64,000 bases of DNA, taken from positions 95-64,094 of IMG/VR virus record IMGVR_UViG_3300047463_000166; one strand, written 5' to 3'. The translations under genes and the position numbers were made by a program. Of this stretch, positions 3,007-47,776 are shown in pieces. Origin of the DNA: a virus. Its lineage: Duplodnaviria; Caudoviricetes. The notes below the pieces were generated by a model. The model worked only from the letters and a program-made list of their open reading frames with translations. It ran no database searches and had not been told where the DNA came from. The first letter of the stretch is position 1; each line of letters starts with the position of its first letter.

Positions 3007-3292
3007 TGTTGTCTACATCTACGCTCAAGATATGCACTGGTCGAGAACACTGTGCATGGCACCGATCAGCGATCGAGCACATAACCGAGATCAGGCGATA
3101 GATTGTGCTGGCCGGTTATACAAACGGGAGAAGGTACCGATCGTCATCGCAAGAAACGATTACGGGTATTTTGCGGTGGGAAAGATCGGGACAATCGACA
3201 GTAAGGAATTTCCCTACTGTGTCGGCGTCGTGGACGGCAGCGTATTTCTGTCGGCATCGAACATCAAGGAATGGGGTGTCCCATGTGGCTGA
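2999..3292 (+). CDS. Hypothetical protein
   Basis: ATG overlapping upstream ORF end. Confidence 0.55.
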   Translation: MNDVVYIYAQDMHWSRTLCMAPISDRAHNRDQAIDCAGRLYKREKVPIVIARNDYGYFAVGKIGTIDSKEFPYCVGVVDGSVFLSASNIKEWGVPCG

Positions 3293-3458
3293 ACATTGTG
3301 GTCAATCAAATCGAGCAAGTGTGGAACGTCGTTATTGAAGGACAGAGACGGACTTCGTTTACAGCGTGTAACACGAAAGGCGAAGCCGAAGATCTGGCAT
3401 CCATTGCCCGAAAGAATCCGACTGTGGCAGAAAAACTTCATGGAGTGAGGGACTAATC

Positions 3459-3896
3459 ATGTACTACGATGAAATTGAAGGGCCAAAGATGCGGAGGCGT
3501 GTACCACGAAAGAGGACGCTTGAATTGTACCGTGAAGCATTGACAGCGGTTCAAGCATACAAGAAGCAGGTACTCGACCAGGACGCATTCGGTGACGATG
3601 TCCTGTCGATCATGGCGACGGCAAGAGGGATCGATGAGTGGAAGCGGTACGATTGGGAGTGTGTTTCTGATGCGTGTCGGACGCTTCGGATACCTATTGA
3701 AGTTGGCATGCAGTTGACGGCGTGGAACGATCAGCTTGATGATGAGAAGGAACTCGACGAGATCAAGCACAAAGATTCTGGTCATGAGCGGTGGTTGTAC
3801 TTTTGCTGGCGTCTTCAACGTGAGATCCAAGCCCTTGAGTCTACACCCAGGAGACCAAGGCGGAAACGACTGAAGATTGTGAAGGTGATTTCATGA
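3459..3896 (+). CDS. Hypothetical protein
   Basis: RBS, ORF track. Confidence 0.65.
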   Translation: MYYDEIEGPKMRRRVPRKRTLELYREALTAVQAYKKQVLDQDAFGDDVLSIMATARGIDEWKRYDWECVSDACRTLRIPIEVGMQLTAWNDQLDDEKELDEIKHKDSGHERWLYFCWRLQREIQALESTPRRPRRKRLKIVKVIS

Positions 3897-24955: not shown

Positions 24956-26922
24956 CAAACAAAATTCTTAGGGATAAGTATATCAAGCAGTTCGACAACG
25001 CGAAGTTCGAGACGATCATGGGTGAAGTCACCTTCTGGCGTACGTACTCTCGCAGTATATGGGACGAGAACCGTAAAGAGCGGTGGAATGAAACGGTGGG
25101 TCGTGTCGTCAACGGTGTCTTCGATGTGCTCCGTACACACTGCGTCACACATGGGCGGAAGTGGGACAACGAACGTGCTGAACGTACGGCGCGAGACATG
25201 TTTCACCGTATCCTCAACTTCAAGTTCACCCCACCTGGCCGTGGCCTGTACGCGATGGGCACGGACGCGGTATCTGCACATGGCGGGGCTGTGCTGAACA
25301 ACTGCGCGTTCCTCTCGACACGAGATCCGAGACCTGATGTATTTGCCAAGCTCATGAACCTCACGATGCTTGGTGTCGGAGTCGGCTACGATACGCTCGG
25401 AGCAGGGAAGGCAGTGGTTGTTCCACCATCACCGACACTCACGTACACGAGCATTGAGGATACGAGACAAGGGTGGGTTGATTCGGTTGACGAACTTCTT
25501 GCATCATATTTTGCGGGTGGTCATGCGGCAACGGTTGTCTTTGATTACGGGAAGATTCGTCCAGCCGGTTTACCGATCAGACGTTTTGGTGGTGTCTCAA
25601 GTGGACCTGAACCATTGAGGAGATTGCACGATTCGTTGCGGGTGTTGTGTAATTCGTATGCGGGAAAGCGGATTGACAGCACGTTTATCGTTGATTGCTG
25701 CAATCTGATTGGTCGGTGTGTGGTTGCCGGTAATGTCCGGCGATCGGCGCAGATTGCCCTCGGACAAGAAGGTGATCGTGACTTCCTGTATCTCAAAGAA
25801 GACTTCAGCAAGGTCGCTGAATACCGTGCCTTCAGCAACAACAGCATCAGGGCGCACGTCGGTATGGACTATTCCGAGGCCGGACCTTTGACGGCTCGTA
25901 CAGGGGAACCTGGTTATTTCTGGTTGGACAATTCACGGATGTTTGGCCGGATGAACGGACAGGTCTCCGAGCGTACAGACTTCCTGGCGATGGGCACCAA
26001 CCCATGCAGTGAGCAGACTCTTGAGGACGGCGAACTGTGTTGCTTGGTGGAGACCTATCCCGCGAAGCACGACACACTGGACGACTATCTCAAGACCTTG
26101 AAGCTCGCGTACCTCTATGCAAAGGCTGTGACTCTCGTCAAGACCGGCTTCCCCGATACCGACGAGATCATTGCGCGAAACCGTCGCATTGGATGCAGTA
26201 TGAGCGGGGTGGTACAAGCCATTCAGAAGTTTGGCGCGACACAGTTTCTTCGGTGGTGCAATCGCGGATACGATGCGCTGACCGGCTTAGATGCCTCCTA
26301 TAGCGATTGGTTAGGCGTCCCTGAATCGATCAAGCGCACGTCGATCAAACCATCGGGGACGGTCTCGATCCTTGCCAATGCGAGTCCTGGCATTCATTAC
26401 CCACACTCTGAGTACTACATCAGGCGTGTCAGGTTTGCATCCAACTCTCCCATTCTGCCTCACCTGAAGCAAGCCGGTTACAACATCGTGCCGGAAGTAT
26501 ATGGGCAAGAGAAGGGAAAAGAGAACACGATGGTTGTGGAGTTTCCCATCCATGAGCCCCTCTTCTCGAAGGGGAAGGCTCAGGCGTCGATGTGGGAACA
26601 ACTCGCGCTCACAGCCGCCATGCAGCGATATTGGGCCGATAATCAAGTGTCTGTGACGGTTCACTTCACGAAGGAAGAGGCGAAGGATATTCCTTTGGCC
26701 CTTGAGATTTATCAGCACCAACTGAAGTCTGTGAGCTTCTTGCCGTACGATCCGCACCAGGTTTATCAGCTTGCGCCGTACGAAGAGATCACCAAAGAGC
26801 AGTACGACGCACTGGCATCGAACTTGCTAGAGGTAGTCTTACCGTACGACGTGGCCGACGCTGTACAAGAAAGTCAACCGAAGGGATGCGACTCGGATAC
26901 GTGCGAACTTCCAAAGGGGTGA
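24952..26922 (+). CDS. nrdJ: Class II (B12-dependent) ribonucleotide reductase, monomeric type
   Basis: RTYSR, PPGRGL, NNCAF, GNVRRSA, TNPCSEQ, KPSGT, C-terminal CDSDTC. Confidence 0.93.
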   Translation: MTNKILRDKYIKQFDNAKFETIMGEVTFWRTYSRSIWDENRKERWNETVGRVVNGVFDVLRTHCVTHGRKWDNERAERTARDMFHRILNFKFTPPGRGLYAMGTDAVSAHGGAVLNNCAFLSTRDPRPDVFAKLMNLTMLGVGVGYDTLGAGKAVVVPPSPTLTYTSIEDTRQGWVDSVDELLASYFAGGHAATVVFDYGKIRPAGLPIRRFGGVSSGPEPLRRLHDSLRVLCNSYAGKRIDSTFIVDCCNLIGRCVVAGNVRRSAQIALGQEGDRDFLYLKEDFSKVAEYRAFSNNSIRAHVGMDYSEAGPLTARTGEPGYFWLDNSRMFGRMNGQVSERTDFLAMGTNPCSEQTLEDGELCCLVETYPAKHDTLDDYLKTLKLAYLYAKAVTLVKTGFPDTDEIIARNRRIGCSMSGVVQAIQKFGATQFLRWCNRGYDALTGLDASYSDWLGVPESIKRTSIKPSGTVSILANASPGIHYPHSEYYIRRVRFASNSPILPHLKQAGYNIVPEVYGQEKGKENTMVVEFPIHEPLFSKGKAQASMWEQLALTAAMQRYWADNQVSVTVHFTKEEAKDIPLALEIYQHQLKSVSFLPYDPHQVYQLAPYEEITKEQYDALASNLLEVVLPYDVADAVQESQPKGCDSDTCELPKG

Positions 26923-26925
26923 TCT

Positions 26926-27144
26926 ATGGGATGCGGACCTAAAGCAGCGGAAGAGCGGGAAGAGACGCTGTACTACGAGCAGCGCATGGCGGCTTTGAGA
27001 AAAGTCACGCCGGAAACATGGGACACACTCATTGACGATGTGCAGCGTTTGCTAGACTCTATCGAGCACAGCAGCATCATGGGTATTGCCCGAAACGCGA
27101 TCAATGTCGCAGATAATCTCAAACTTATACGGAGGGTACGATGA
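26926..27144 (+). CDS. Hypothetical protein
   Basis: Operon context. Confidence 0.6.
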   Translation: MGCGPKAAEEREETLYYEQRMAALRKVTPETWDTLIDDVQRLLDSIEHSSIMGIARNAINVADNLKLIRRVR

Positions 27145-27332
27145 GAGCACAAATTATGATGGAGCGGCAAGTACGTGTACAGGTACCACTTGCTGACATC
27201 CTCGGTTTGATTGGGCTATGTGAGAAGAACTACGTTCTCCGCGACGTTAGGACTTTCCGTGGGATGCAAATGAGCGACGAACTTGTGGAGCTTGTCTTAT
27301 CGGAGGCATTGCCACATGAACCCCGAAAATAA
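27141..27332 (+). CDS. Hypothetical protein
   Basis: RBS GGAGG, ATGA overlap. Confidence 0.6.
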   Translation: MRAQIMMERQVRVQVPLADILGLIGLCEKNYVLRDVRTFRGMQMSDELVELVLSEALPHEPRK

Positions 27333-27864
27333 GTTTCGTAAATGGTTTCTTGAGCGACTCCAAAAGCACATGGCCCACTGTCATCCGAACACGAAGATCA
27401 CGGTGCAGAAACACGCGGACTACGCCACGGACGGCATCGCAGATATTGATTTGTCGATCAATGGTATGACATGCTGGCTGGAAATCAAACTTCTAACCAG
27501 CCTGAAGAAAGAAAGGAAGCTGCATGTTACGCCATTACAGCGAGCCTACCTTGAAGGACGTGCCAAAGGTGGTGTCCCAACGGGACTTCTTGTTGGCCTT
27601 GCTCTTGGGCCAAGAAAGGGGTATCTCGCTGCTCTTTTTGTCCCACCAATATCCGAGGTCGTTCACAGAGACATGTTCAGACAGTCTGAACACGTTATGG
27701 AGCAGATTTACTCGATGGCGTACACAGCGGCGAGAGCGTCAGCGAAAGCCTTCGAGTCTGATCTTACGGGTGTTCGACGTACTAATGATTTTGCTGATGG
27801 CGACGTTACTCGTCTACGCGATAGCGAATACGGAAGAGACGAAGCCGACGCCGATGGTGGTTGA
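27316..27864 (+). CDS. VRR-NUC/Holliday-junction resolvase-like nuclease
   Basis: E..F, GIAD, WLEIK, TPLQ pattern. Confidence 0.7.
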   Translation: MNPENKFRKWFLERLQKHMAHCHPNTKITVQKHADYATDGIADIDLSINGMTCWLEIKLLTSLKKERKLHVTPLQRAYLEGRAKGGVPTGLLVGLALGPRKGYLAALFVPPISEVVHRDMFRQSEHVMEQIYSMAYTAARASAKAFESDLTGVRRTNDFADGDVTRLRDSEYGRDEADADGG

Positions 27865-28156
27865 CCCTTGCAAGGTCGATTGGCAGACGTTACCTGATCC
27901 GATCGATATGGAGACGGACTATACGGCAGGACTACATATAAATCATTTCGATGTCAATGGCGATGGCACGATTGATTATTCTGTAGCCTTCCAAATCACG
28001 TACACGAGTGAATTGGATCTCGTGTATGATCTTAACCAAGTCCCACTGTTCGTCAAGGTGGGCACACTTATGGGGGTTCTCGATGAAGATCACAACACAG
28101 GGTATGTGGAGTGTAATCGTTACAGTCTTGACAGTAGCCGCACTACTCGTCACTGA
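27785..28156 (+). CDS. Membrane-anchored or secreted protein with DxNGDGxxD Ca-binding-like motif
   Basis: Hydrophobic N-terminus, FDVNGDGTIDY; start uncertain. Confidence 0.5.
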   Translation: MILLMATLLVYAIANTEETKPTPMVVDPCKVDWQTLPDPIDMETDYTAGLHINHFDVNGDGTIDYSVAFQITYTSELDLVYDLNQVPLFVKVGTLMGVLDEDHNTGYVECNRYSLDSSRTTRH

Positions 28157-28526
28157 CTCATTCCATGTACAGGCGCAGACTGTTCTCAAAACAGTTCAAG
28201 CAACTCTGACATGGAACGCCAACACGGAAACGGATCTTGCTGGATACAAGGTCTACCGTGGACAGGGCGCGACAGCATGTGCGACGACCGCGACGTTGCC
28301 AGCCCTGGTGGATGCAGCCGGAGCACCGATTACCGTGACACCGACCGCGACACCGACGTTTGTGGACAATACGTTTCAGTCTGTAGACAGCACGATCTGT
28401 TACGAGATAACAGCGTACGACACGGCTGGAAACGAGTCACCGAGGAGTAACCGTGCTGTTGCTTCGGTAAACGTAAACCCTCCGTCAGCCCCCCAAAGCC
28501 TCAACCTTCGCGTTGTGATAAAGTAA
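28083..28526 (+). CDS. Secreted fibronectin type III domain protein
   Basis: Signal peptide; LTWNANTETDLAGYKVYRG, YEITAYDTAGNESPRS. Confidence 0.85.
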   Translation: MKITTQGMWSVIVTVLTVAALLVTDSFHVQAQTVLKTVQATLTWNANTETDLAGYKVYRGQGATACATTATLPALVDAAGAPITVTPTATPTFVDNTFQSVDSTICYEITAYDTAGNESPRSNRAVASVNVNPPSAPQSLNLRVVIK

Positions 28527-28582
28527 AGGGCTTTTGGCGGTGGCTCTGCGGGTGGATGAATCTGAAGGTAACCATTAAATGA
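28475..28582 (+). other. Putative -1 programmed frameshift (A AAC CCT plus hairpin) giving an alternative C-terminus
   Basis: X XXY YYZ in frame; -1 frame open to TGA 28582, overlapping next ATG. Confidence 0.6.
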
Positions 28583-28737
28583 GAATAAAGATTCTGAAGG
28601 AGCCCTGCCCGAAATGTGGCGGGGCTCTCACCCCTGATCCAGTACAGGGAGATGGACTTTACTGGTGGTATCGGTGTATAAATTGTGGTTGCACACCGAG
28701 AGTGCCAAAGCCGAAGCGACCGGAGAGAACAATGTGA
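28579..28737 (+). CDS. Small zinc-ribbon protein (52 aa)
   Basis: CPKCGG...CINCG. Confidence 0.6.
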   Translation: MRIKILKEPCPKCGGALTPDPVQGDGLYWWYRCINCGCTPRVPKPKRPERTM

Positions 28738-29072
28738 AAGAGTATAACGTCAAAGAACTACCAGTGCAGAACGTGTGGCCGACCGGAGAGATCGGTATCT
28801 CGTGGATCGATGGCCTGTGGGAACGAAACGGTCAGAATCTCTTATGCCCTATCTCGAAACTCATTCTTGAAAAGCAGCCCCAAACGCCGTCGTGGATCAA
28901 AGCCGCGTCGATCATTCTTGGGTGGTCGCTTGGCCGGACACTTGCGTTCAAACTCTCATTAGGGAAAGCTCCCCTTTCCCAAAAAGGAAGTTCACATGAA
29001 GCCAACAAAGGCATCACCGACGCGCAATTATATAATCTCCTCTTCAAGTTGGCTCGGAAAGTTCATCACTGA
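28734..29072 (+). CDS. Hypothetical protein
   Basis: GTGA coupling, RBS GGAG. Confidence 0.5.
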   Translation: MKEYNVKELPVQNVWPTGEIGISWIDGLWERNGQNLLCPISKLILEKQPQTPSWIKAASIILGWSLGRTLAFKLSLGKAPLSQKGSSHEANKGITDAQLYNLLFKLARKVHH

Positions 29073-29185
29073 GTTCGTGCCGTACGCTCATGTCATGCTC
29101 GACGACGCAAAGGAAAATTACGTACTCACCAAGGAAGAATACAACTCTTACGTGGTCGCAGCCTATGCCGACCTAAAGGTACCCT

Positions 29186-29380
29186 ATGAAGACGACCGTC
29201 CAGAAGTTTCTTTTGTACAGCGCATTTCTTTGGATTAGTTTCAGTTCAGTGATCCTCATGATGATGCTGATTGTCGAGGTCGCCAGTACATTCGGCGGTC
29301 CCGCAGCCATTCTGATTATCGGGGCCACGGCATTCAGCTTTCTTTATCTCGTACATGTAAACCAGAAACAAAAGGCGTGA
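29186..29380 (+). CDS. Small two-TM membrane protein
   Basis: Two hydrophobic segments. Confidence 0.55.
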   Translation: MKTTVQKFLLYSAFLWISFSSVILMMMLIVEVASTFGGPAAILIIGATAFSFLYLVHVNQKQKA

Positions 29381-29381
29381 C

Positions 29382-29669
29382 ATGGAATACGAAATTCACA
29401 TCACAATGGAACATATTCCTGACAAGCTCAGTATGCAAGTGTTTCTCAACTCCTATAACTGGTCGTACTCCGCAATCGACGGAGATCCGCATCTTGGCCC
29501 CAAGGTTTTTCATTATGCGACCAAGCACTACGACGCGGACATTCACGATCTGCGGTACGTGCTTCAACGAACAGAAGACCTGATAACGCTGCTCCAACAG
29601 AACGGGGCGACTGTGGTTCGGCACAAGGTCGAATTGGTTGTCTTTGACAGTCGAAAAAGGGGGCAATAA
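29382..29669 (+). CDS. Hypothetical protein (YEIHIT...RHKVE type)
   Basis: TAATG coupling to dCMP deaminase. Confidence 0.65.
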   Translation: MEYEIHITMEHIPDKLSMQVFLNSYNWSYSAIDGDPHLGPKVFHYATKHYDADIHDLRYVLQRTEDLITLLQQNGATVVRHKVELVVFDSRKRGQ

Positions 29670-30157
29670 TGGATTTTAGGCGATCCAAGTGGGACCATCG
29701 GTTTCTGAAATTGGCCGAGCACATTGCCAGTTGGTCGAAAGATCCCTCGACCAAAGTCGGCGCGGTGCTCGTACAGGATGGTAATCGAGTCGTCGGGATT
29801 GGGTACAACGGCTTTCCTCGTGGCGTCAAGGACGACGATGAGCGATACGCAAACCGAGACAAGAAATACCAACTGGTCGTTCATGCAGAGGTCAACGCGA
29901 TTCTCATGGCTGGTGACAAAGCACGAGGCGCAACCCTCTACGTATGGCCGTCGTTCATGTCGCCGCCGATCTGTGCAGAGTGCTGCAAGACGGCGATCCA
30001 GGCCGGTATCCGTGAGATTGTCGGATATCAGATCGATGAGAAGGATTTGAACGAGCGTCAACTCAGATGGAAGGATTCGATTCTCGTGTCTCGTGATATG
30101 TGCTACGAGGCGGGGATCAGGTGCCGTGGGGTCTATCATTCAGGGGAGGGACTATGA
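29669..30157 (+). CDS. dCMP deaminase
   Basis: SKDPSTKVGA, GYNG, HAEVNA, PICAEC. Confidence 0.93.
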   Translation: MDFRRSKWDHRFLKLAEHIASWSKDPSTKVGAVLVQDGNRVVGIGYNGFPRGVKDDDERYANRDKKYQLVVHAEVNAILMAGDKARGATLYVWPSFMSPPICAECCKTAIQAGIREIVGYQIDEKDLNERQLRWKDSILVSRDMCYEAGIRCRGVYHSGEGL

Positions 30158-30735
30158 AAATCGCATTTACCGGTGCTGGTGGAACCGGCAAGACAACATT
30201 AGCGAAGTACCTTGCTGAGAAGTGGGGCATCCCCTACGTCGGCAGCGTCAGTCGTGAAGTGATGACGGAGATGGGTGTGGCGAGTGAGATGGCCCAAGAA
30301 CGAATGACGGACAACGAGCTACTGACTCTGCAACAGCGGATCTACGAGAGGCGAAAAGAGAAACTCGCGGCTCTTGATTCGTATGTCACCGACCGGTGTG
30401 CGTTGGACAACTACATCTACGGCCTTCGTCGGTGTGGCACTGCGTTGACCGAAGAGGTTCGTGCTGAGTGGGAGAAGGGAGCCGTGGCCGATCTCTATGC
30501 TCAGGATCTCGTGTTTCATACTCCGATCGGGTTGTTCGAGACGGTTGCGGACGGAGTGCGTGTGACGGATATCAGCCACCAACACTTGATGGACGCGGCC
30601 ATGTACGGTTTTCTTTGCAAACACGCCTTTGATAAGATGGCAGGACATGTGTATATCGTCAACATGGCCGATCTGAATCGACGGAAGAAGTATATCGACT
30701 CACTGGTTTCAGAGGTCTATGCCAATGGCAAATGA
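30154..30735 (+). CDS. P-loop nucleotide kinase-like (AAA_28/NadR-type) protein
   Basis: GAGGTGKTT, TDRCALD, DGVR. Confidence 0.8.
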   Translation: MKIAFTGAGGTGKTTLAKYLAEKWGIPYVGSVSREVMTEMGVASEMAQERMTDNELLTLQQRIYERRKEKLAALDSYVTDRCALDNYIYGLRRCGTALTEEVRAEWEKGAVADLYAQDLVFHTPIGLFETVADGVRVTDISHQHLMDAAMYGFLCKHAFDKMAGHVYIVNMADLNRRKKYIDSLVSEVYANGK

Positions 30736-30958
30736 ACATGTGCCTCCCGATATCCCTGTTGATCCGTATGAGCGTAAGCCGAAACTTACGCTCGTACCGT
30801 GTGACCACTTCTGGCTCGAAGTCAGAACGGTCCCTAACCAAGTCGTGATCGCAATCTGCAATCGTCGCGGGTGCCGGAAGCGGGGAACCTTTACGATGGA
30901 GGATTGGGGAGCCTTAGCACAAGAAGGACGGGCGTTGAACAAACCGGTGAGGGTATAA
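30719..30958 (+). CDS. Hypothetical protein
   Basis: CDHFW...C...C pattern. Confidence 0.5.
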   Translation: MPMANEHVPPDIPVDPYERKPKLTLVPCDHFWLEVRTVPNQVVIAICNRRGCRKRGTFTMEDWGALAQEGRALNKPVRV

Positions 30959-31123
30959 TGACAAGACTCGTACAGATTGGCGATTGGATTTGTTTTCAAC
31001 AATTAGGGAGTCCGACGTACGCTCTGGTGCTGTATATCCTTGACGAAGGATCAAGACTTGGGCGGAAAGTAGTGACGACAAATGGTGAAATCCACGAGTC
31101 ATCGATTCTTGAGATTCGTTGAG

Positions 31124-32003: not shown

Positions 32004-34181
32004 CTACGCCTGTTGTGCTGAGAAGTCATCGATGTAGAGCGAGTACGTTGTCCCGCCATACACATGTACTTCTAATTCAATCACACCGGCCTCGGTCGGT
32101 CCAAGTGTAATCGTGACCTTTTCCCATGTGTCGGCTGCGACTGTGATGCTTGAACTCACGTCGTTCTCAATGCCAGTCAGTTGTCCGCCACGGCACACGA
32201 GTTTTCCCGTAATGCCGGTATTTGTTCGTCTCATCCAGACCGAGACTGTGACCGTTGCGCTTGCATTGACAGCCAGTTTTGCGAGTGGATAGATGAATGG
32301 AAAGTTTGAATTGAACATTGTTGTGGTTGTAGGACTGATCTTCCATGAGAGCCCACTCGCTGTATGACGAACGGAGTTTTCAGAGAACACGGTACATGCG
32401 AGTCCACCGGCATAGAGTCGATGATCGCCGCTCGTGCCGTTGAAGTTACGAAAACGAATGCCTGTTCGTTTGTGCCATGTCCCAGGAATCGCGTTGTCGA
32501 ACTTCGTGGTTTCAGCTAATGAGGATTTGAGCACCACAATGTCTTGTGGATAGTTGCCTGGATTGCCGTGAATAATTCCACCAGATGTGTTCCCGCTTGT
32601 CGTAATGGAGTTGTACGTACCAGTACCCATCCCTAAATATGCGCCATGTGAACTGCATCCTGTTGCTGTGAGGGCTTTCACGGTCCAGTTGGCCCACGTT
32701 CCATTGTCGTGTACCCATCCATAGCGAGCGTGGTCGGCTGAAGTCACAGTGCCGAAGATCCAATAATAATTATTCGCCGTAAGCCCATTAATACCGTCTC
32801 GGCAATTCTTCGTAATGAGCGTATCGACTCGTGAGAATATATTCTCGTTGTCGAGGTAGAACCCATACCCATAATACACACCAGCATCTCCCCCTGATAA
32901 CGTCACGATCTTTGTGAAGATGTTATCTGAACCAAACATTTTCACTCCGGAGCTACCAAACGGGCACACGCCGATGTAGTCTATTGTCGAGTCACTGATG
33001 TTGACATTGACACCTACATCACAACCACCAGCCCAAATGGTCCCGATCTGTGCCGATCCAGCACCAGTAAAGTGCCATCCTGTCGAATATCGATAACAGC
33101 CAATTTTGTCGAATTTGTAATATGATTTCGATCCCGCTCTGATACCGTACCCATACCCTGTGCGCCCATCAAAGTACGTCCCGTCGAGATTCTGTGTCGT
33201 CATCGCTGTCTGATCCCACCCACCGGAGAAGGTGATGAGTGAACCAGCCGAGCCACTGTCTTGCAGTTCTTGGACAACTGTAAATCCAAATTGCGGTTGA
33301 TCGGTTGCAATCGTCTTTCGTATCCATGCTGTGACAGATTCCGTCACTCCAGAATACCCACGAGAAAGACCACTGATTTGATAATATGCGATACCAGGCC
33401 AGAAATCGAGTTTCACAGTCGTTCCGTTGATATTCAAGATCGGGTACCACATCTCGTCGCCGCCTGTATTCTTTCCGATCAAAGTCTGTAAGTTCAAACA
33501 ATCATCACCAGCCGCTCGTGTCGTACTGATATTGTCGAGGTACACATCGCAAGCCCCTGGATCGAGATCACAATAGAGCGCGATCGACTGAATCGATGCA
33601 CCCAAAGCCGAGCCCTTGTTAATGTAGACTGGAAACCATCGCCCTGTGTAGGCTTGTGCCGGTATCGCCAATGTATCGACAGTCGTCACACCGGCTGTAT
33701 CGGAACACAGACGGATTGAAAGGGTATTTGCGGCCAAAGACGATGCGGTTTGAATCATGCACCAGAACGTAATGCCCTGGTAGGTGCTGTAGTTTTGAGC
33801 CGCACCGAGGGCAAAGTACGCCGCAAGACCGGTTGTGAAACCAGACGCAATGGCGATCTTGGCCGATTTATCTCCTGAGACACCACGGAAGTATGTCGTA
33901 TCTGCCGTACAGGTGACGTTGGCTGAGGCCGTCCAAGCTGTGTCACCGTCTGTAATGAGGGCGTTCCTGGCCGATCCAAGGGTCACTGTTGCGCTTTTAT
34001 TCGTGAAGGAGCCGGTCGTACCGAGCGACGTGGGGTTTGGGCTGCCCATGACCCTGATCGTGTCTCCTGGGGCAATTCTGGCTGCTGTAGCTCCACTTGT
34101 GATGGTCTTCCACCGGTTTGCAAAGGTCGTCCCGTCGTTTGAGTCATTTCCGCCTTCGTAATCTAAGTAAAAGGTCGCCAT
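32004..34181 (-). CDS. Tail spike/receptor-binding protein paralog B (beta-helix core)
   Basis: N-terminal YLDYEGGND..DGT; Gly/Tyr/Asn-rich repeats; C-terminal CBM-like domain. Confidence 0.65.
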   Translation of the reverse strand: MATFYLDYEGGNDSNDGTTFANRWKTITSGATAARIAPGDTIRVMGSPNPTSLGTTGSFTNKSATVTLGSARNALITDGDTAWTASANVTCTADTTYFRGVSGDKSAKIAIASGFTTGLAAYFALGAAQNYSTYQGITFWCMIQTASSLAANTLSIRLCSDTAGVTTVDTLAIPAQAYTGRWFPVYINKGSALGASIQSIALYCDLDPGACDVYLDNISTTRAAGDDCLNLQTLIGKNTGGDEMWYPILNINGTTVKLDFWPGIAYYQISGLSRGYSGVTESVTAWIRKTIATDQPQFGFTVVQELQDSGSAGSLITFSGGWDQTAMTTQNLDGTYFDGRTGYGYGIRAGSKSYYKFDKIGCYRYSTGWHFTGAGSAQIGTIWAGGCDVGVNVNISDSTIDYIGVCPFGSSGVKMFGSDNIFTKIVTLSGGDAGVYYGYGFYLDNENIFSRVDTLITKNCRDGINGLTANNYYWIFGTVTSADHARYGWVHDNGTWANWTVKALTATGCSSHGAYLGMGTGTYNSITTSGNTSGGIIHGNPGNYPQDIVVLKSSLAETTKFDNAIPGTWHKRTGIRFRNFNGTSGDHRLYAGGLACTVFSENSVRHTASGLSWKISPTTTTMFNSNFPFIYPLAKLAVNASATVTVSVWMRRTNTGITGKLVCRGGQLTGIENDVSSSITVAADTWEKVTITLGPTEAGVIELEVHVYGGTTYSLYIDDFSAQQA

Positions 34182-36448
34182 TAGCTTACTCCTAAATCGT
34201 CAATGTAACATGAGTAGGTTGACCCACCGTACACCACCATTTCTAGTTCTACCACACCGGCTGCTGATGGTGTGACGGTCACACTCAACTGCTGCCATGT
34301 ATCCGCTGCTGCTGTTATGCTCGAAGTTTGGTCGCTCGTGATCCCCGCCAACTGGTACGCTCGAAGTCTTAGAGTGGCTGTCAGACCAGTGTTCGTCCGG
34401 CGAGCCCACACGGTAATCGTCTTTGACACACCAGCCGGTAAATAAACTTTTGCAAACGGCCATATGAACGGCGTTTGAGCCGTCCAGTAGGTTGTAGACT
34501 GTGGAGAAATCTTCCATGCCAAACCACTCGCGGTATGACGCACTGAGCTTTCAGAAAACACTTCGGTACGGTGTGAACCTGACCCATAATAATTTCGATG
34601 ATCTCCGCTTGTGCCGTTATAATCGTGGATATGAAGACCGCCCTGACTCGAACTATAGGAACCAGAATCAAAAAACACTGGAGTCGTACAGGTCAATGAT
34701 GATTTCAAAATGTCGAGTTGAGTTTTTCCACCACTAAATCGAATGCCGATCCCTGTACCTGTCGCAGTAAAATCACCGATAACGACACGCGAGCCACATG
34801 ATCCGTTCGATGAGAGCCAGAGAGCTTGGCATGAGCTATTCGTTGCACAGACCATTTGTTTGATGAAAAAATTTCTATGGTCGCTATCAAGATTACCAAA
34901 CGCAACTGATGTAGATGCGAGTGCGTCTGAATCGACAAGATCAATCGTGCTATCTGTTGCAATGGCAAACGACACACCAAATGTGCCGTGATTCTTTGAG
35001 TACGCTGCTCCGACCCAACTATTGATAAAGGAGCCAGTGAACGACACGCCTCCATAGTAGGAGGAGCCAGTACGAATTTCGGTGACTTTAATATCGGCAA
35101 TCGACGGAAGGTTCACCGCCGTATGGACGCCACTGTACCCGTTTCCGTACGCCCACATTTTATTCAGGGTGATGTTTTGTAGGTTGAGAGAATTGAACCC
35201 TTCGGCGTTTCCACACGCCCACAAGATACCGGTCGCTTCTACCGCACGGTAGGTCGCATCGACCAGACCAGTCCCACCATGAAGATAGTGACCAACCACG
35301 TTGTTGTTTGTGTGAATATCACCGATCCACTTCATGCCAGTTGATGTACCATCTGCACGAATGCCGTAGTAATACCGAACGAAGTTCATCTTCTCCGTCC
35401 AGATATAATTCTTCGAGGAGATATGATAGCCATAACCAAATCCACTCTGGCCGTCAAACCATGTTTCCCCTGTTTGTGTAGACATGTCTGTTGTGTTCCA
35501 CCCACCAGAAAATGTAATAGGTGTTCCAAGCGTTCCACTGTCCTGTACTGCTTGTACAGCAGTCGTACTCGCCGCTACAAGGTCTGTCTTAATGGTCTTG
35601 CGAATATAACCAGTCACGGTCTCCGTAGTACCGTAATAACCTTTCCACGATGCAATCGAGGCTACCGCAATGGTAGGATTGGCATCGAGGAGCAATGTTG
35701 TACCGCTGATACTTCTGAGACCCCACCATGTCTCTGTCGAAGTATTCTTCCCGATTAGAGTGGTGAGATTCAGACAATCATTTCCAGCGGCCTTCGTTGT
35801 ACTGATGTTATCGATGAAGAGGTTAATGGTCCCAGGATCAGAAATCGCATTGATTGAGATCGAGCGAATTGCCGAGCCAAGAGCCGAGCCTTTATTGACG
35901 TATACCGGCACCCATTGACCAACCTGTGAGATTGCAGGAATGGCGAATGAGTCAACAACAGTTTCCCCAACTGTGTCAGAGCAGAAATCAAGTGTGAGAA
36001 CACCGGCTGCGAGGGTTGCCGTAGTGACTTGGAACCAGAAAGTCACACCTTCATACGAACTGTAGTTCTGGTTCGACCCAAGATCAAGATACGCCACTTT
36101 ACCGGTCGCAAAACCAGCCGCGATTGCATGTTTGGCCGATCCTGTCGATGTTCGATAAACCGTCGTATCAGCGGTACACGTCACGTTTGCTGACGCTGTC
36201 CACGCTGTATCGCAATTCGTTACAAGAGCATTGAGTGCTGATGCCAACGTCACGGTTGCTGATCCGTTTGTCCAGGTCGCATTGACGGCAAGCGAGGTCG
36301 GGTCAGGAGACTGCTTCACGCGGATCGTATCACCAGGCGCAATACGCGCAGCCGTGGCTCCCGATGTAATCGTCTTCCATCGGTTTGCGAATGTCGTTCC
36401 GTCGTTGGCGTCATTACCGCCTTCGTAGTCAAGATAGAATGTTGCCAT
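34181..36448 (-). CDS. Tail spike/receptor-binding protein paralog A
   Basis: Same N- and C-terminal domains as paralog B, divergent core. Confidence 0.65.
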   Translation of the reverse strand: MATFYLDYEGGNDANDGTTFANRWKTITSGATAARIAPGDTIRVKQSPDPTSLAVNATWTNGSATVTLASALNALVTNCDTAWTASANVTCTADTTVYRTSTGSAKHAIAAGFATGKVAYLDLGSNQNYSSYEGVTFWFQVTTATLAAGVLTLDFCSDTVGETVVDSFAIPAISQVGQWVPVYVNKGSALGSAIRSISINAISDPGTINLFIDNISTTKAAGNDCLNLTTLIGKNTSTETWWGLRSISGTTLLLDANPTIAVASIASWKGYYGTTETVTGYIRKTIKTDLVAASTTAVQAVQDSGTLGTPITFSGGWNTTDMSTQTGETWFDGQSGFGYGYHISSKNYIWTEKMNFVRYYYGIRADGTSTGMKWIGDIHTNNNVVGHYLHGGTGLVDATYRAVEATGILWACGNAEGFNSLNLQNITLNKMWAYGNGYSGVHTAVNLPSIADIKVTEIRTGSSYYGGVSFTGSFINSWVGAAYSKNHGTFGVSFAIATDSTIDLVDSDALASTSVAFGNLDSDHRNFFIKQMVCATNSSCQALWLSSNGSCGSRVVIGDFTATGTGIGIRFSGGKTQLDILKSSLTCTTPVFFDSGSYSSSQGGLHIHDYNGTSGDHRNYYGSGSHRTEVFSESSVRHTASGLAWKISPQSTTYWTAQTPFIWPFAKVYLPAGVSKTITVWARRTNTGLTATLRLRAYQLAGITSDQTSSITAAADTWQQLSVTVTPSAAGVVELEMVVYGGSTYSCYIDDLGVS

Positions 36449-47038: not shown

Positions 47039-47360
47039 TCGACTTCTCCATTACTGCCGTGCCGGTGAATCCGGCCAGTAGTGCCTTTGCGTCCTCCTGT
47101 GAGCCTTGTCCGCTCGACTTGATCGACTTGATCTGCCGTTGCAGATTGTCGATATGTGACCGGAGGGCTCTTGGCTGCTTACCACTGAAACCAGCCTCGA
47201 TTGCGTGTATTGCCCCAACTGCTGCACCGTTCGCAGCCGCCATCATATCGTAGATCCGATTGATCTGTGCTGCCTTCGACAGTGCCGTGACAGTCGAGAT
47301 TGGGTACTCAGAGAGTACGGATTGCAGTGAGTGACCGCGACTCACTAGCGTCTCGACCAT
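47001..47360 (-). CDS. Tail assembly chaperone extension (gpT-like)
   Basis: -1 frame relative to upstream chaperone, open from slippery site. Confidence 0.75.
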   Translation of the reverse strand: MVETLVSRGHSLQSVLSEYPISTVTALSKAAQINRIYDMMAAANGAAVGAIHAIEAGFSGKQPRALRSHIDNLQRQIKSIKSSGQGSQEDAKALLAGFTGTAVMEKSNGRRKNRPSGSS

Positions 47361-47776
47361 TAGATCGAAACTGTCTGTCCCTGTGTCGCGTTGTTTGCGG
47401 CCAGCTTTCCGAAAAAACCGTTCAGGTGTTCCAGGTTCGCCTTCAATACTAACAAAAGAAGCACGATCCCGTCAGTATATTTCATGTCTTGAAGCTGTGT
47501 TTCGGTTAAATTGCACGAGACTGACAGAATAGCCGGAGCGTGTGTGACAAACGGTTGAATCGAGGTCAGCAGTCCGTTGGTCTTGTCGAGCATCGAAGAC
47601 GAATCACTCTCTTCGAGGATCGCGGAAAATGAATTCCAGTCAGCTTGTGTGGTCTGGTACTCCTTCGCAACCGCACTGAGAACGCCGCCGAGCTTCGAGA
47701 ACTGGACGATGTTCCATTCCTTGACCTTGATACCGTTGTACTCCGTGCCGGAAAAGAGGGCAAAAATGCCGTCCAT
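47360..47776 (-). CDS. Tail assembly chaperone (gpG-like)
   Basis: Between major tail and tape measure genes; RBS AAGGAG. Confidence 0.8.
   Translation of the reverse strand: MDGIFALFSGTEYNGIKVKEWNIVQFSKLGGVLSAVAKEYQTTQADWNSFSAILEESDSSSMLDKTNGLLTSIQPFVTHAPAILSVSCNLTETQLQDMKYTDGIVLLLLVLKANLEHLNGFFGKLAANNATQGQTVSI
47411..47417 (-). other. -1 frameshift heptamer T TTT TTC
   Basis: -1 frame reads FRKAGRKQRDTGTDSFDL into MVETL without a stop. Confidence 0.8.

Follow-up and report, generated by a model that had tools for sequence, protein, structure and literature searches.

A phage gene for a small secreted Fn3-like protein with a probable programmed -1 frameshift site near its 3' end

Nearly all programmed frameshifts known in phages concern structural genes, namely those for tail chaperones, capsid proteins and tail proteins. 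In the dnaX gene of Escherichia coli, from which tau and gamma are made, a slippery heptamer is followed at a spacing of 5-6 nt by a stem-loop which acts as a stimulator; the heptamer is the highly efficient A_AAA_AAG, a Shine-Dalgarno-like stimulator lies upstream of it, and the frameshift gives the shorter product. In lambda and most tailed phages, the tail assembly chaperones G and GT come from a short gene in which an X_XXY_YYZ heptamer close to the 3' end lets ribosomes slip by -1, a minority of them making a C-terminally extended product, and this frameshift is described in passages of a review as being conserved by position and not by sequence (Atkins et al. 2016, PMC5009743). Two C-terminal versions of a phage protein also arise by frameshifting in T7 gene 10A/10B and in the cases of Ig-like extension, in which, in the published passages on them, an Ig-like domain is added to a capsid or tail protein.

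The locus described here belongs to a tailed phage (record IMGVR_UViG_3300047463_000166, 64,094 bp, about 95% complete), of which a stretch of 64 kb, called the window in the following, was analysed. Near the 3' end of a small gene for a secreted Fn3-like protein, the sequence is best explained by a programmed -1 ribosomal frameshift, a reading which we regard as probable, though with considerable reserve. The likeness to G/GT, as that system is described in the passages mentioned, would lie in the use of an X_XXY_YYZ heptamer, close to the 3' end of a short gene, for a -1 slip by which a minority of the product is extended at the C-terminus. Unlike in G/GT, the Fn3-like gene is not situated upstream of a tape measure gene and does not encode a chaperone, and its extension is short (33 codons) and ends on the start of the next gene. 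The phage has a canonical G/GT-type site of its own, a T_TTT_TTC at about 47417 on the minus strand (about 47360-47776); 18 codons separate it from the stop of a 138-aa gene, its -1 frame runs for 138 codons, and a gene of tape-measure size (1,096 aa) follows directly downstream. With T7 gene 10A/10B and the Ig-like extensions, as far as the passages on these go, the locus has in common that a frameshift would provide two C-terminal versions of a phage protein and that Ig-like or Fn3-like domains are involved; there, however, the frameshift adds the domain, whereas here the Fn3-like domain would be the part common to both products, the protein has a predicted signal peptide and the added part is a short peptide rich in Cys and Trp. 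Like dnaX, the locus combines a heptamer with a stem-loop, here a predicted one 5 nt downstream, but its heptamer is of a type that appears weak in E. coli, a Shine-Dalgarno-like stimulator upstream of the heptamer is not visible in the window sequence, and the predicted product is longer instead of shorter.

In the full-text literature and review passages covered by a narrow search, no description of a comparable case was found. What sets the case apart from these parallels is the setting in a non-structural secreted gene, the Fn3-like domain as the common part, and the fusion of the -1 stop to the next start. If the frameshift is real, recoding would be extended to proteins acting on the host envelope, and a case from a bacterial system would be built on a heptamer thought to be weak. 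The fusion of the -1 stop to the next start also makes frameshift-dependent translational coupling directly testable.

The Fn3-like gene, its neighbours and its family

Within the window, the plus strand carries replication genes and the minus strand structural genes. The Fn3-like gene (28083..28526, plus strand) is part of the plus-strand early block, where it is surrounded by early or replication genes. In its product of 147 aa, an N-terminus resembling a signal peptide is followed by one Fn3-like domain and by a conserved tail that reads PPSAPQSLNLRVVIK up to the stop; in longer form the C-terminus can be written ...NPPSAPQSLNLRVVIK or ...NVNPPSAPQSLNLRVVIK, with the TAA stop codon at 28524-26. 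The start of the gene is overlapped by an upstream gene (27785..28156, plus strand) whose small product has a hydrophobic N-terminus and contains a weak loop of EF-hand type (DVNGDGTIDY), the EF-hand matches staying below the Pfam cut-off; this upstream gene is syntenic in both relatives of the phage discussed below (tblastn matches in L109 and L110). On the other side follows a zinc-ribbon-like gene (28579..28737, plus strand) for 52 aa with the cysteine pairs CPKCGG...CINCGC. A putative Shine-Dalgarno-like sequence, GAAGGT (28564..28569, plus strand), precedes the ATG at 28579 by 9 nt, or by 10 nt when counted from its AAGG core. A megablast search of positions 26000-31000 against deposited phage genomes returned no match.

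Pfam family PF00041 has no match to the single window protein. A profile built from 25 family members matches solved Fn3 domains (the chitinase A1 Fn3 domain 1k85 with E = 5e-5, and 3mpc, an 'Fn3-like protein'). The AlphaFold2 model of the frame-0 protein has a pLDDT of 88.8, with about 90 in the tail, yet DSSP assigns no strand to that tail. When the model was compared with the PDB by Foldseek, the top matches were Fn3 domains with TM-scores of 0.6-0.7 (target) and a probability of 1.00, with no E-value below 0.001. An Fn3 match at the level of the profile and a predicted beta-sandwich fold of Fn3 type were thus both found.

In the alignment of 25 sequences, nearly all family members end in PPxAPxGL-x-V-x-I-x followed directly by the stop, and both prolines are invariant. 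As this tail is conserved across the family alignment, the frame-0 end is, judging from the sequences, the ancestral and genuine terminus of the family and not the outcome of an error. Homologues of the Fn3 protein were found at 26 viral and 80 metagenome loci; with the exception of a nearly identical metagenome record (L028, see below), these are at most 50% identical and non-syntenic and therefore cannot test the candidate slip site. The frameshift arrangement is absent from 58 such distant, non-syntenic homologue ORFs.

Several observations on tails of this kind can be added. A 415-aa protein of another locus (L004:3431-4678) also ends in ...TTPPAAPINLRIV, and the PPxAPxNLxV tail motif is thus not limited to small Fn3 proteins; it is similar to the strand with which an Fn3 domain begins, and these proteins may share it as a tag for docking or for donating a strand. 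Three distant homologues, L007, L070 and L066, have, within a single frame, a C-terminal amphipathic helix where the strand-like tail would otherwise be. In L007 (...TLTIWEQIAAFFKRLFGSLA) and L070 (...GVKAKLLKLLAWLKTLFG) the helix comes directly after PPxAP and therefore appears to be a natural variant of the family, and in L066 (...NPIIEQLKIFIKRIK) the helical tail occurs without the PPxAP motif. A distant phage (L002:2822-3202 and 3218-3559) has two small secreted Fn3-like genes in tandem, of which only the first has the PPxxPxGL tail.

Candidate slip site, -1 frame and predicted downstream hairpin

An in-frame heptamer AAACCCT had been reported for this gene in a preliminary description, and its presence is confirmed: A_AAC_CCT (28475..28481, plus strand) is of the X_XXY_YYZ type and lies in frame with the frame-0 codons GTA, AAC and CCT. 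The -1 frame is open from 28451 to a TGA at 28580-82, reading ...KPSVSPPKPQPSRCDKVKGFWRWLCGWMNLKVTIK before the stop, and the extension that would follow the slip (28481..28582, plus strand) is SVSPPKPQPSRCDKVKGFWRWLCGWMNLKVTIK, 33 codons in length. The TGA overlaps the ATG (28579-81) of the 52-aa zinc-ribbon-like ORF as ATGA, and a gap of 52 nt (28527-28578) lies between the frame-0 stop and that ATG; the open frame, the overlap and the gap had all been recognised before and were found again as described. The only canonical start within the -1 ORF is ATG 28556, which is lost in two strain variants (X6 and X16) and in the relative L110, so that the -1 ORF would be reachable by a change of frame alone. 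A search among 5.8 billion proteins for a longer protein that carries the -1 peptide in one frame yielded no candidate sharing three 5-residue words, which is weak evidence.

The -1 frame closes with a tail echo (28556..28582, plus strand), MNLKVTIK followed by the TGA that overlaps the next ATG. When all 2,991 eight-residue peptides preceding a stop in the six frames of the window were scored against the frame-0 end LNLRVVIK (mean -7.8, sd 6.0), MNLKVTIK was the best match apart from LNLRVVIK itself, with a BLOSUM62 score of 27 against 17 for the next best. The two C-termini are alike far beyond chance in the window. The codons of the five identical residues all differ (AAC/AAT, CTT/CTG, GTT/GTA, ATA/ATT, AAG/AAA), and a likeness of the peptides with none of the codons shared points to selection on the protein sequence, past or present. 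The echo was also sought downstream of other homologues, where 61 ORFs were found and 59 scored; the window reaches 27 and the other 58 all stay at or below 13. The earlier claim of two similar C-termini thus applies strongly to the window only. In L110 it extends no further than a pattern of hydrophobic-basic-hydrophobic-x-hydrophobic residues, which is seen in all four tails of the window and L110, and in the relative L108 the C-termini have no resemblance.

Downstream of the heptamer, a core stem-loop (28487..28545, plus strand) begins after a spacing of 5 nt, with outer pairs extending to 28478-28555, and its loop contains the codons of the frame-0 tail together with the TAA stop. This corresponds to the long imperfect hairpin noticed previously, which is the predicted minimum-energy fold of the window sequence but is no more stable than shuffled sequences: its energy is ordinary in comparison with dinucleotide shuffles for each of three choices of ends (z = -0.71, -1.52 and -0.37). 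The consensus structure of the window and L110 has 25 pairs, none of them supported by a compensatory change. An Rfam search gave no match at E <= 1, and neither a terminator-like nor a promoter-like site could be detected in the spacer, a result that leaves room for other RNA roles.

The efficiency of heptamers in E. coli has been surveyed by Sharma et al. (2014), and in the parts of that study which concern the present types the efficient classes include H_HHU_UUY, a class covering both the C_CCU_UUC of L108 and T_TTT_TTC. The same parts do not list A_AAC_CCU among the efficient heptamers, which may not reflect the situation in the host of this phage, and report A_AAC_CCA as being below threshold even with a strong pseudoknot and the C_CCU tetramer alone as being moderately shifty. 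By these published classes, A_AAC_CCU appears to be a weak type of heptamer in E. coli, and this counts against the frameshift reading.

According to the proposed mechanism, most ribosomes would stay in frame 0 and stop at the TAA at 28524, giving the protein of 147 aa with the usual tail of the family. A minority would pause at the stem-loop located 5 nt past A_AAC_CCU and slip back by one base in a tandem slip, in which tRNA-Asn would move from AAC to AAA and tRNA-Pro from CCU to CCC. The slipped ribosomes would then read 33 more codons in the -1 frame. The resulting long form would keep the Fn3 domain and have its last 16 residues replaced, at first by a proline-rich linker, then by a Cys-x10-Cys segment rich in Trp, Arg and Lys, and finally by a terminal strand which copies the normal one. 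By ending on the TGA that overlaps the next ATG, slipped ribosomes may feed the translation of the zinc-ribbon gene. We infer the slipping, its efficiency and any role of the long form from the sequence.

Syntenic relatives and strain variants

Relatives suited for comparison were found by means of the neighbouring genes and not by means of the Fn3 protein. Among 40 viral loci that bear an RNR gene, the gene cassette occurs only in L109, which is on the same contig as L108, and in L110. Further searches for carriers of the block described below or of the neighbouring gene led back to the L110 and L108 contigs only among viral contigs and gave none among prokaryote genomes.

L110 is 70% identical to the window in RNR and 45% (tblastn match) or 38% (whole alignment) in the Fn3 protein, and it has the identical heptamer A_AAC_CCT. 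Between the two phages, the best-conserved DNA is a block at 28474..28549 of the window (plus strand), which is made up of the heptamer, the 5-nt spacer and the hairpin and in which L110 is 84.2% identical over 76 columns, with 6 substitutions and one 6-nt indel. This is the highest identity among 6 nucleotide matches between the window and L110, the other 5 ranging from 64 to 77%, and it is the only such match between 26.8 and 56.9 kb of the window. The block begins 1 nt 5' of the heptamer and extends just as far as the 3' stem arm does, and identity falls to background on both sides of it. Past the block, the spacer of L110 has diverged and is 3 nt shorter than the 'non-coding' spacer of the window; as this difference amounts to 3 nt, the relation of the frames is kept. 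The length differences between the two phages are thus 6 nt and 3 nt, and the -1 frame of L110, KPSVSPPKPSRCDSVKGFWRWLCKWSGVKFRL, remains open for 30 codons and ends on a TGA that overlaps the zinc-ribbon ATG. At the position of ATG 28556, L110 has AGT. Its hairpin is marginal, with z = -2.22 when the heptamer is included and -1.36 when it is not. Because the block is shared by descent or exchange, the window and L110 have to be counted as one observation.

L108 is 75% identical to the window in RNR and 63% identical in the zinc-ribbon protein. At the 3' end of its Fn3 gene, the DNA is unrelated to that of the window and encodes a degenerate Fn3-like tail (...VAVPFDRKAPSIPMNPALK). An in-frame heptamer, C_CCT_TTC, is nevertheless found about 3 alignment columns (codons) from the site of the window; the spacer measures 88 nt, and 45 codons can be read in the -1 frame before a TGA which overlaps the next ATG. 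The structure downstream has a predicted energy of -42.4 kcal/mol (z = -3.84), and none of 200 shuffles folds as well. The strong stem of this structure starts at a distance of 19 nt from the heptamer; nearer to the heptamer, at 8-11 nt, the outer pairs are no more than weak. A BLASTP comparison of the L108 -1 peptide with those of the window and L110 was not significant (no alignment; E = 0.21). A C-x10/11-C and K-[GS]-F pattern is common to the -1 peptides of the window, L110 and L108 and is to be taken as a hint only. In the three phages, putative Shine-Dalgarno-like sequences precede the zinc-ribbon ATG by 10, 13 and 14 nt.

Neither of the syntenic relatives lacks the heptamer or the open -1 frame, the absence of which in homologues had been named in advance as evidence against a frameshift. 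The candidate slip site and the -1 frame, which is open to a TGA over 33, 30 and 45 codons in the window, L110 and L108, are conserved in all three syntenic lineages, of which L108 alone is an independent replicate. The frameshift proposed in the preliminary description gains from the presence of both elements in both relatives; among its weak points are the ordinary energy of the hairpin in the window and a heptamer of a type which appears weak in E. coli.

In-frame X_XXY_YYZ heptamers are rare in this phage, with 25 in 11,674 codon positions of 22 long genes. For an estimate of chance, synonymous codons were randomised and the spacer was shuffled, and the cases were counted in which an in-frame heptamer fell within the last 40 codons and the -1 frame stayed open from there as far as the ATGA. 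There were 466 of 20,000 such cases for the window, 1,159 of 20,000 for L110 and 53 of 20,000 for L108, corresponding to joint chances of 0.023, 0.058 and 0.0027. A -1 frame open from the heptamer to the ATGA was by itself found in a proportion of 0.13 (window), 0.19 (L110) and 0.11 (L108) of the randomisations, and the spacers are poor in stops in the other frames too. For the hypothesis as framed beforehand, L108 is, at the level of sequence comparison, an independent test, which was passed at about 0.003.

Variation within the phage itself was followed in L028, an independent metagenome record, and in contigs from 4 of 20 public sequencing runs (X6, X11, X14 and X16). The statements on the contigs refer to the differences listed, beside which 30 further ones exist, and the contigs leave parts uncovered in X11 (28548-28723), X16 (28108-28459) and X14 (several bins). 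L028 is 99.3% identical over 4,578 nt, with the heptamer and a run of six C (C6) unchanged, and its sole local difference, 28546 C>A, exchanges one Leu codon of the -1 frame for another. Between 28339 and 28522, no differences are listed for X6, X11 and X14, nor for L028. Further downstream, 28523 G>A is synonymous in frame 0 and changes V to I in the -1 frame, the -1 peptide is changed neither by 28546 C>A nor by 28570 A>G, and 28557 T>C changes M to T in the -1 frame and thereby turns its only ATG (28556) into ACG in X6. In X16, a deletion of 6 nt removes two whole codons in both frames, and a pair of +1 and -1 indels, 4 nt apart, restores the frame yet destroys ATG 28556. None of the listed differences introduces a stop into the -1 frame. 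Of the four single-base changes in the spacer or at its edge, two alter an amino acid of the -1 frame, as may well happen under neutrality. The variant changes would thus fit a maintained -1 frame and are too few for proof.

In X16, the contig match stops behind 28094 and resumes at 28473, with unlike sequence in between. The conserved start amounts to the first 4 codons, after which the unlike sequence following 28094 reads in frame as a hydrophobic stretch; X16 therefore has, as far as can be told from the contig, another allele of the Fn3 body in front of the 3' end known from the window. The boundary at which identity to L110 begins coincides with the 3' boundary of the unlike sequence in X16, and the Fn3 body looks like a swappable allele.

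Two further patches of dense difference lie outside the Fn3-like gene. In the EF-hand-like gene, 24 of the 31 listed differences of X6 fall within the 231 nt of 27835-28065, against 2 in the Fn3 body, and this cluster suggests a recombinant patch. In the 3' part of a dCMP-deaminase-like gene, 270 nt (29884-30152) hold 26 of the 31 mismatches of L028, the identity being 93.8% afterwards, which marks what is apparently another mosaic patch.

Alternative readings and possible roles

The same observations can be read without a productive frameshift. The block of 76 nt would then be an RNA element or a recombination boundary, and the open -1 frame and the heptamers would be coincidental; as an RNA element it might stabilise or process the mRNA or control the translation of the zinc-ribbon gene, and as a boundary it might serve as a linker for swaps of Fn3 alleles. 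We consider this unlikely, though far from negligible. In its favour, Fn3 bodies have been swapped between conserved ends (at 28094 and 28473 in X16, with the L110 boundary at the same place), the hairpin is conserved with no covariation, the heptamer belongs to a type that is weak in E. coli by the published classes cited above, and an open -1 frame alone is not rare (0.11-0.19). What it leaves unexplained is that the block starts exactly at the heptamer, that differences in spacer length are multiples of three or compensated, and that L108 has an efficient heptamer and a -1 frame open to the ATGA in unrelated DNA (53 of 20,000 randomisations); nor does any Rfam family match. The echo at the amino-acid level with all-different codons is also left unexplained and could be accounted for in another way, namely as a relic of an older Fn3 allele which ended in MNLKVTIK, was coupled by the ATGA to the next gene, and left its last codons behind untranslated when a replacement allele came in. 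Allele replacement of the Fn3 body is seen in this group of phages, and a likeness in amino acids with different codons is what would be expected of two old, once-functional alleles; the absence of the echo in L108, its weakness in L110 and its absence from 58 other homologue ORFs (best score 13) agree with this as well. The preceding GFWRWLCGW is, however, unlike the PPxAPxx of the family, which restricts such a relic to 8 codons at most, and decay would be expected of untranslated codons, yet the frame is kept in the variants. A relic would explain the echo alone, leaving both the heptamers and the open frames of the three lineages unaccounted for, and could exist alongside frameshifting instead of competing with it. 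In this form it appears improbable.

Hardly any weight can be given to an independent mini-ORF of 8 codons starting at ATG 28556 or to a sequencing error in the C6 run. The former has in its favour that ATG 28556 opens exactly at the echo, but X6 has ACG at this codon, X16 a rearrangement and L110 AGT, with the frame open all the same, and a well-placed Shine-Dalgarno sequence is not present. An error is conceivable at the C6 run (28489-94), which is a homopolymer; this run is, however, identical in L028, an independent record with 99.3% identity, and in L110, no C6 indel is listed in the four runs, and the frame-0 tail after the run matches the family consensus. Transcriptional slippage at the same run was considered and rejected: the run is short, L108 is without such a run, and no length variants are listed.

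A programmed -1 frameshift is thus preferred, and it can be extended to a dual role, which we hold to be unlikely: the long form would be a second secreted Fn3-like isoform, the slip would act as a gate for the next gene, and the block would be a fixed 3' end for allele exchange. The isoform would have a disulfide-closed loop rich in Trp and Arg, with the C-x10/11-C and K-[GS]-F core, in front of the re-created strand, and this loop would anchor the protein to the envelope. Only ribosomes which have slipped by -1 would reach the ATGA and re-initiate on the zinc-ribbon gene, and the heptamer and hairpin together would form the fixed end at which Fn3 alleles are exchanged between phages. The distinction between a membrane-tethered and a soluble isoform, with putative roles in receptor masking or superinfection exclusion, is speculation.

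Positions 27800-29100 of the window are present in 20 public runs from 11 studies, which cover freshwater, wastewater, estuary, seawater and sediment and include 2 metatranscriptome runs. This is an unusually wide distribution for a single phage. With so many sources, the phage and its host may be a widespread pair in which the protein is of importance. The significance outlined here for the locus derives from the comparison of sequences in three lineages.

Elsewhere in the window, two adjacent large genes on the minus strand (32004-34181 and 34181-36448) encode proteins of 725 and 755 aa, the N-termini of which are nearly identical (MATFYLDYEGGND.NDGTTFANRWKTITSG) and which diverge afterwards. 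By their sequences, they look like a duplicated pair of tail-fibre or depolymerase-type proteins.
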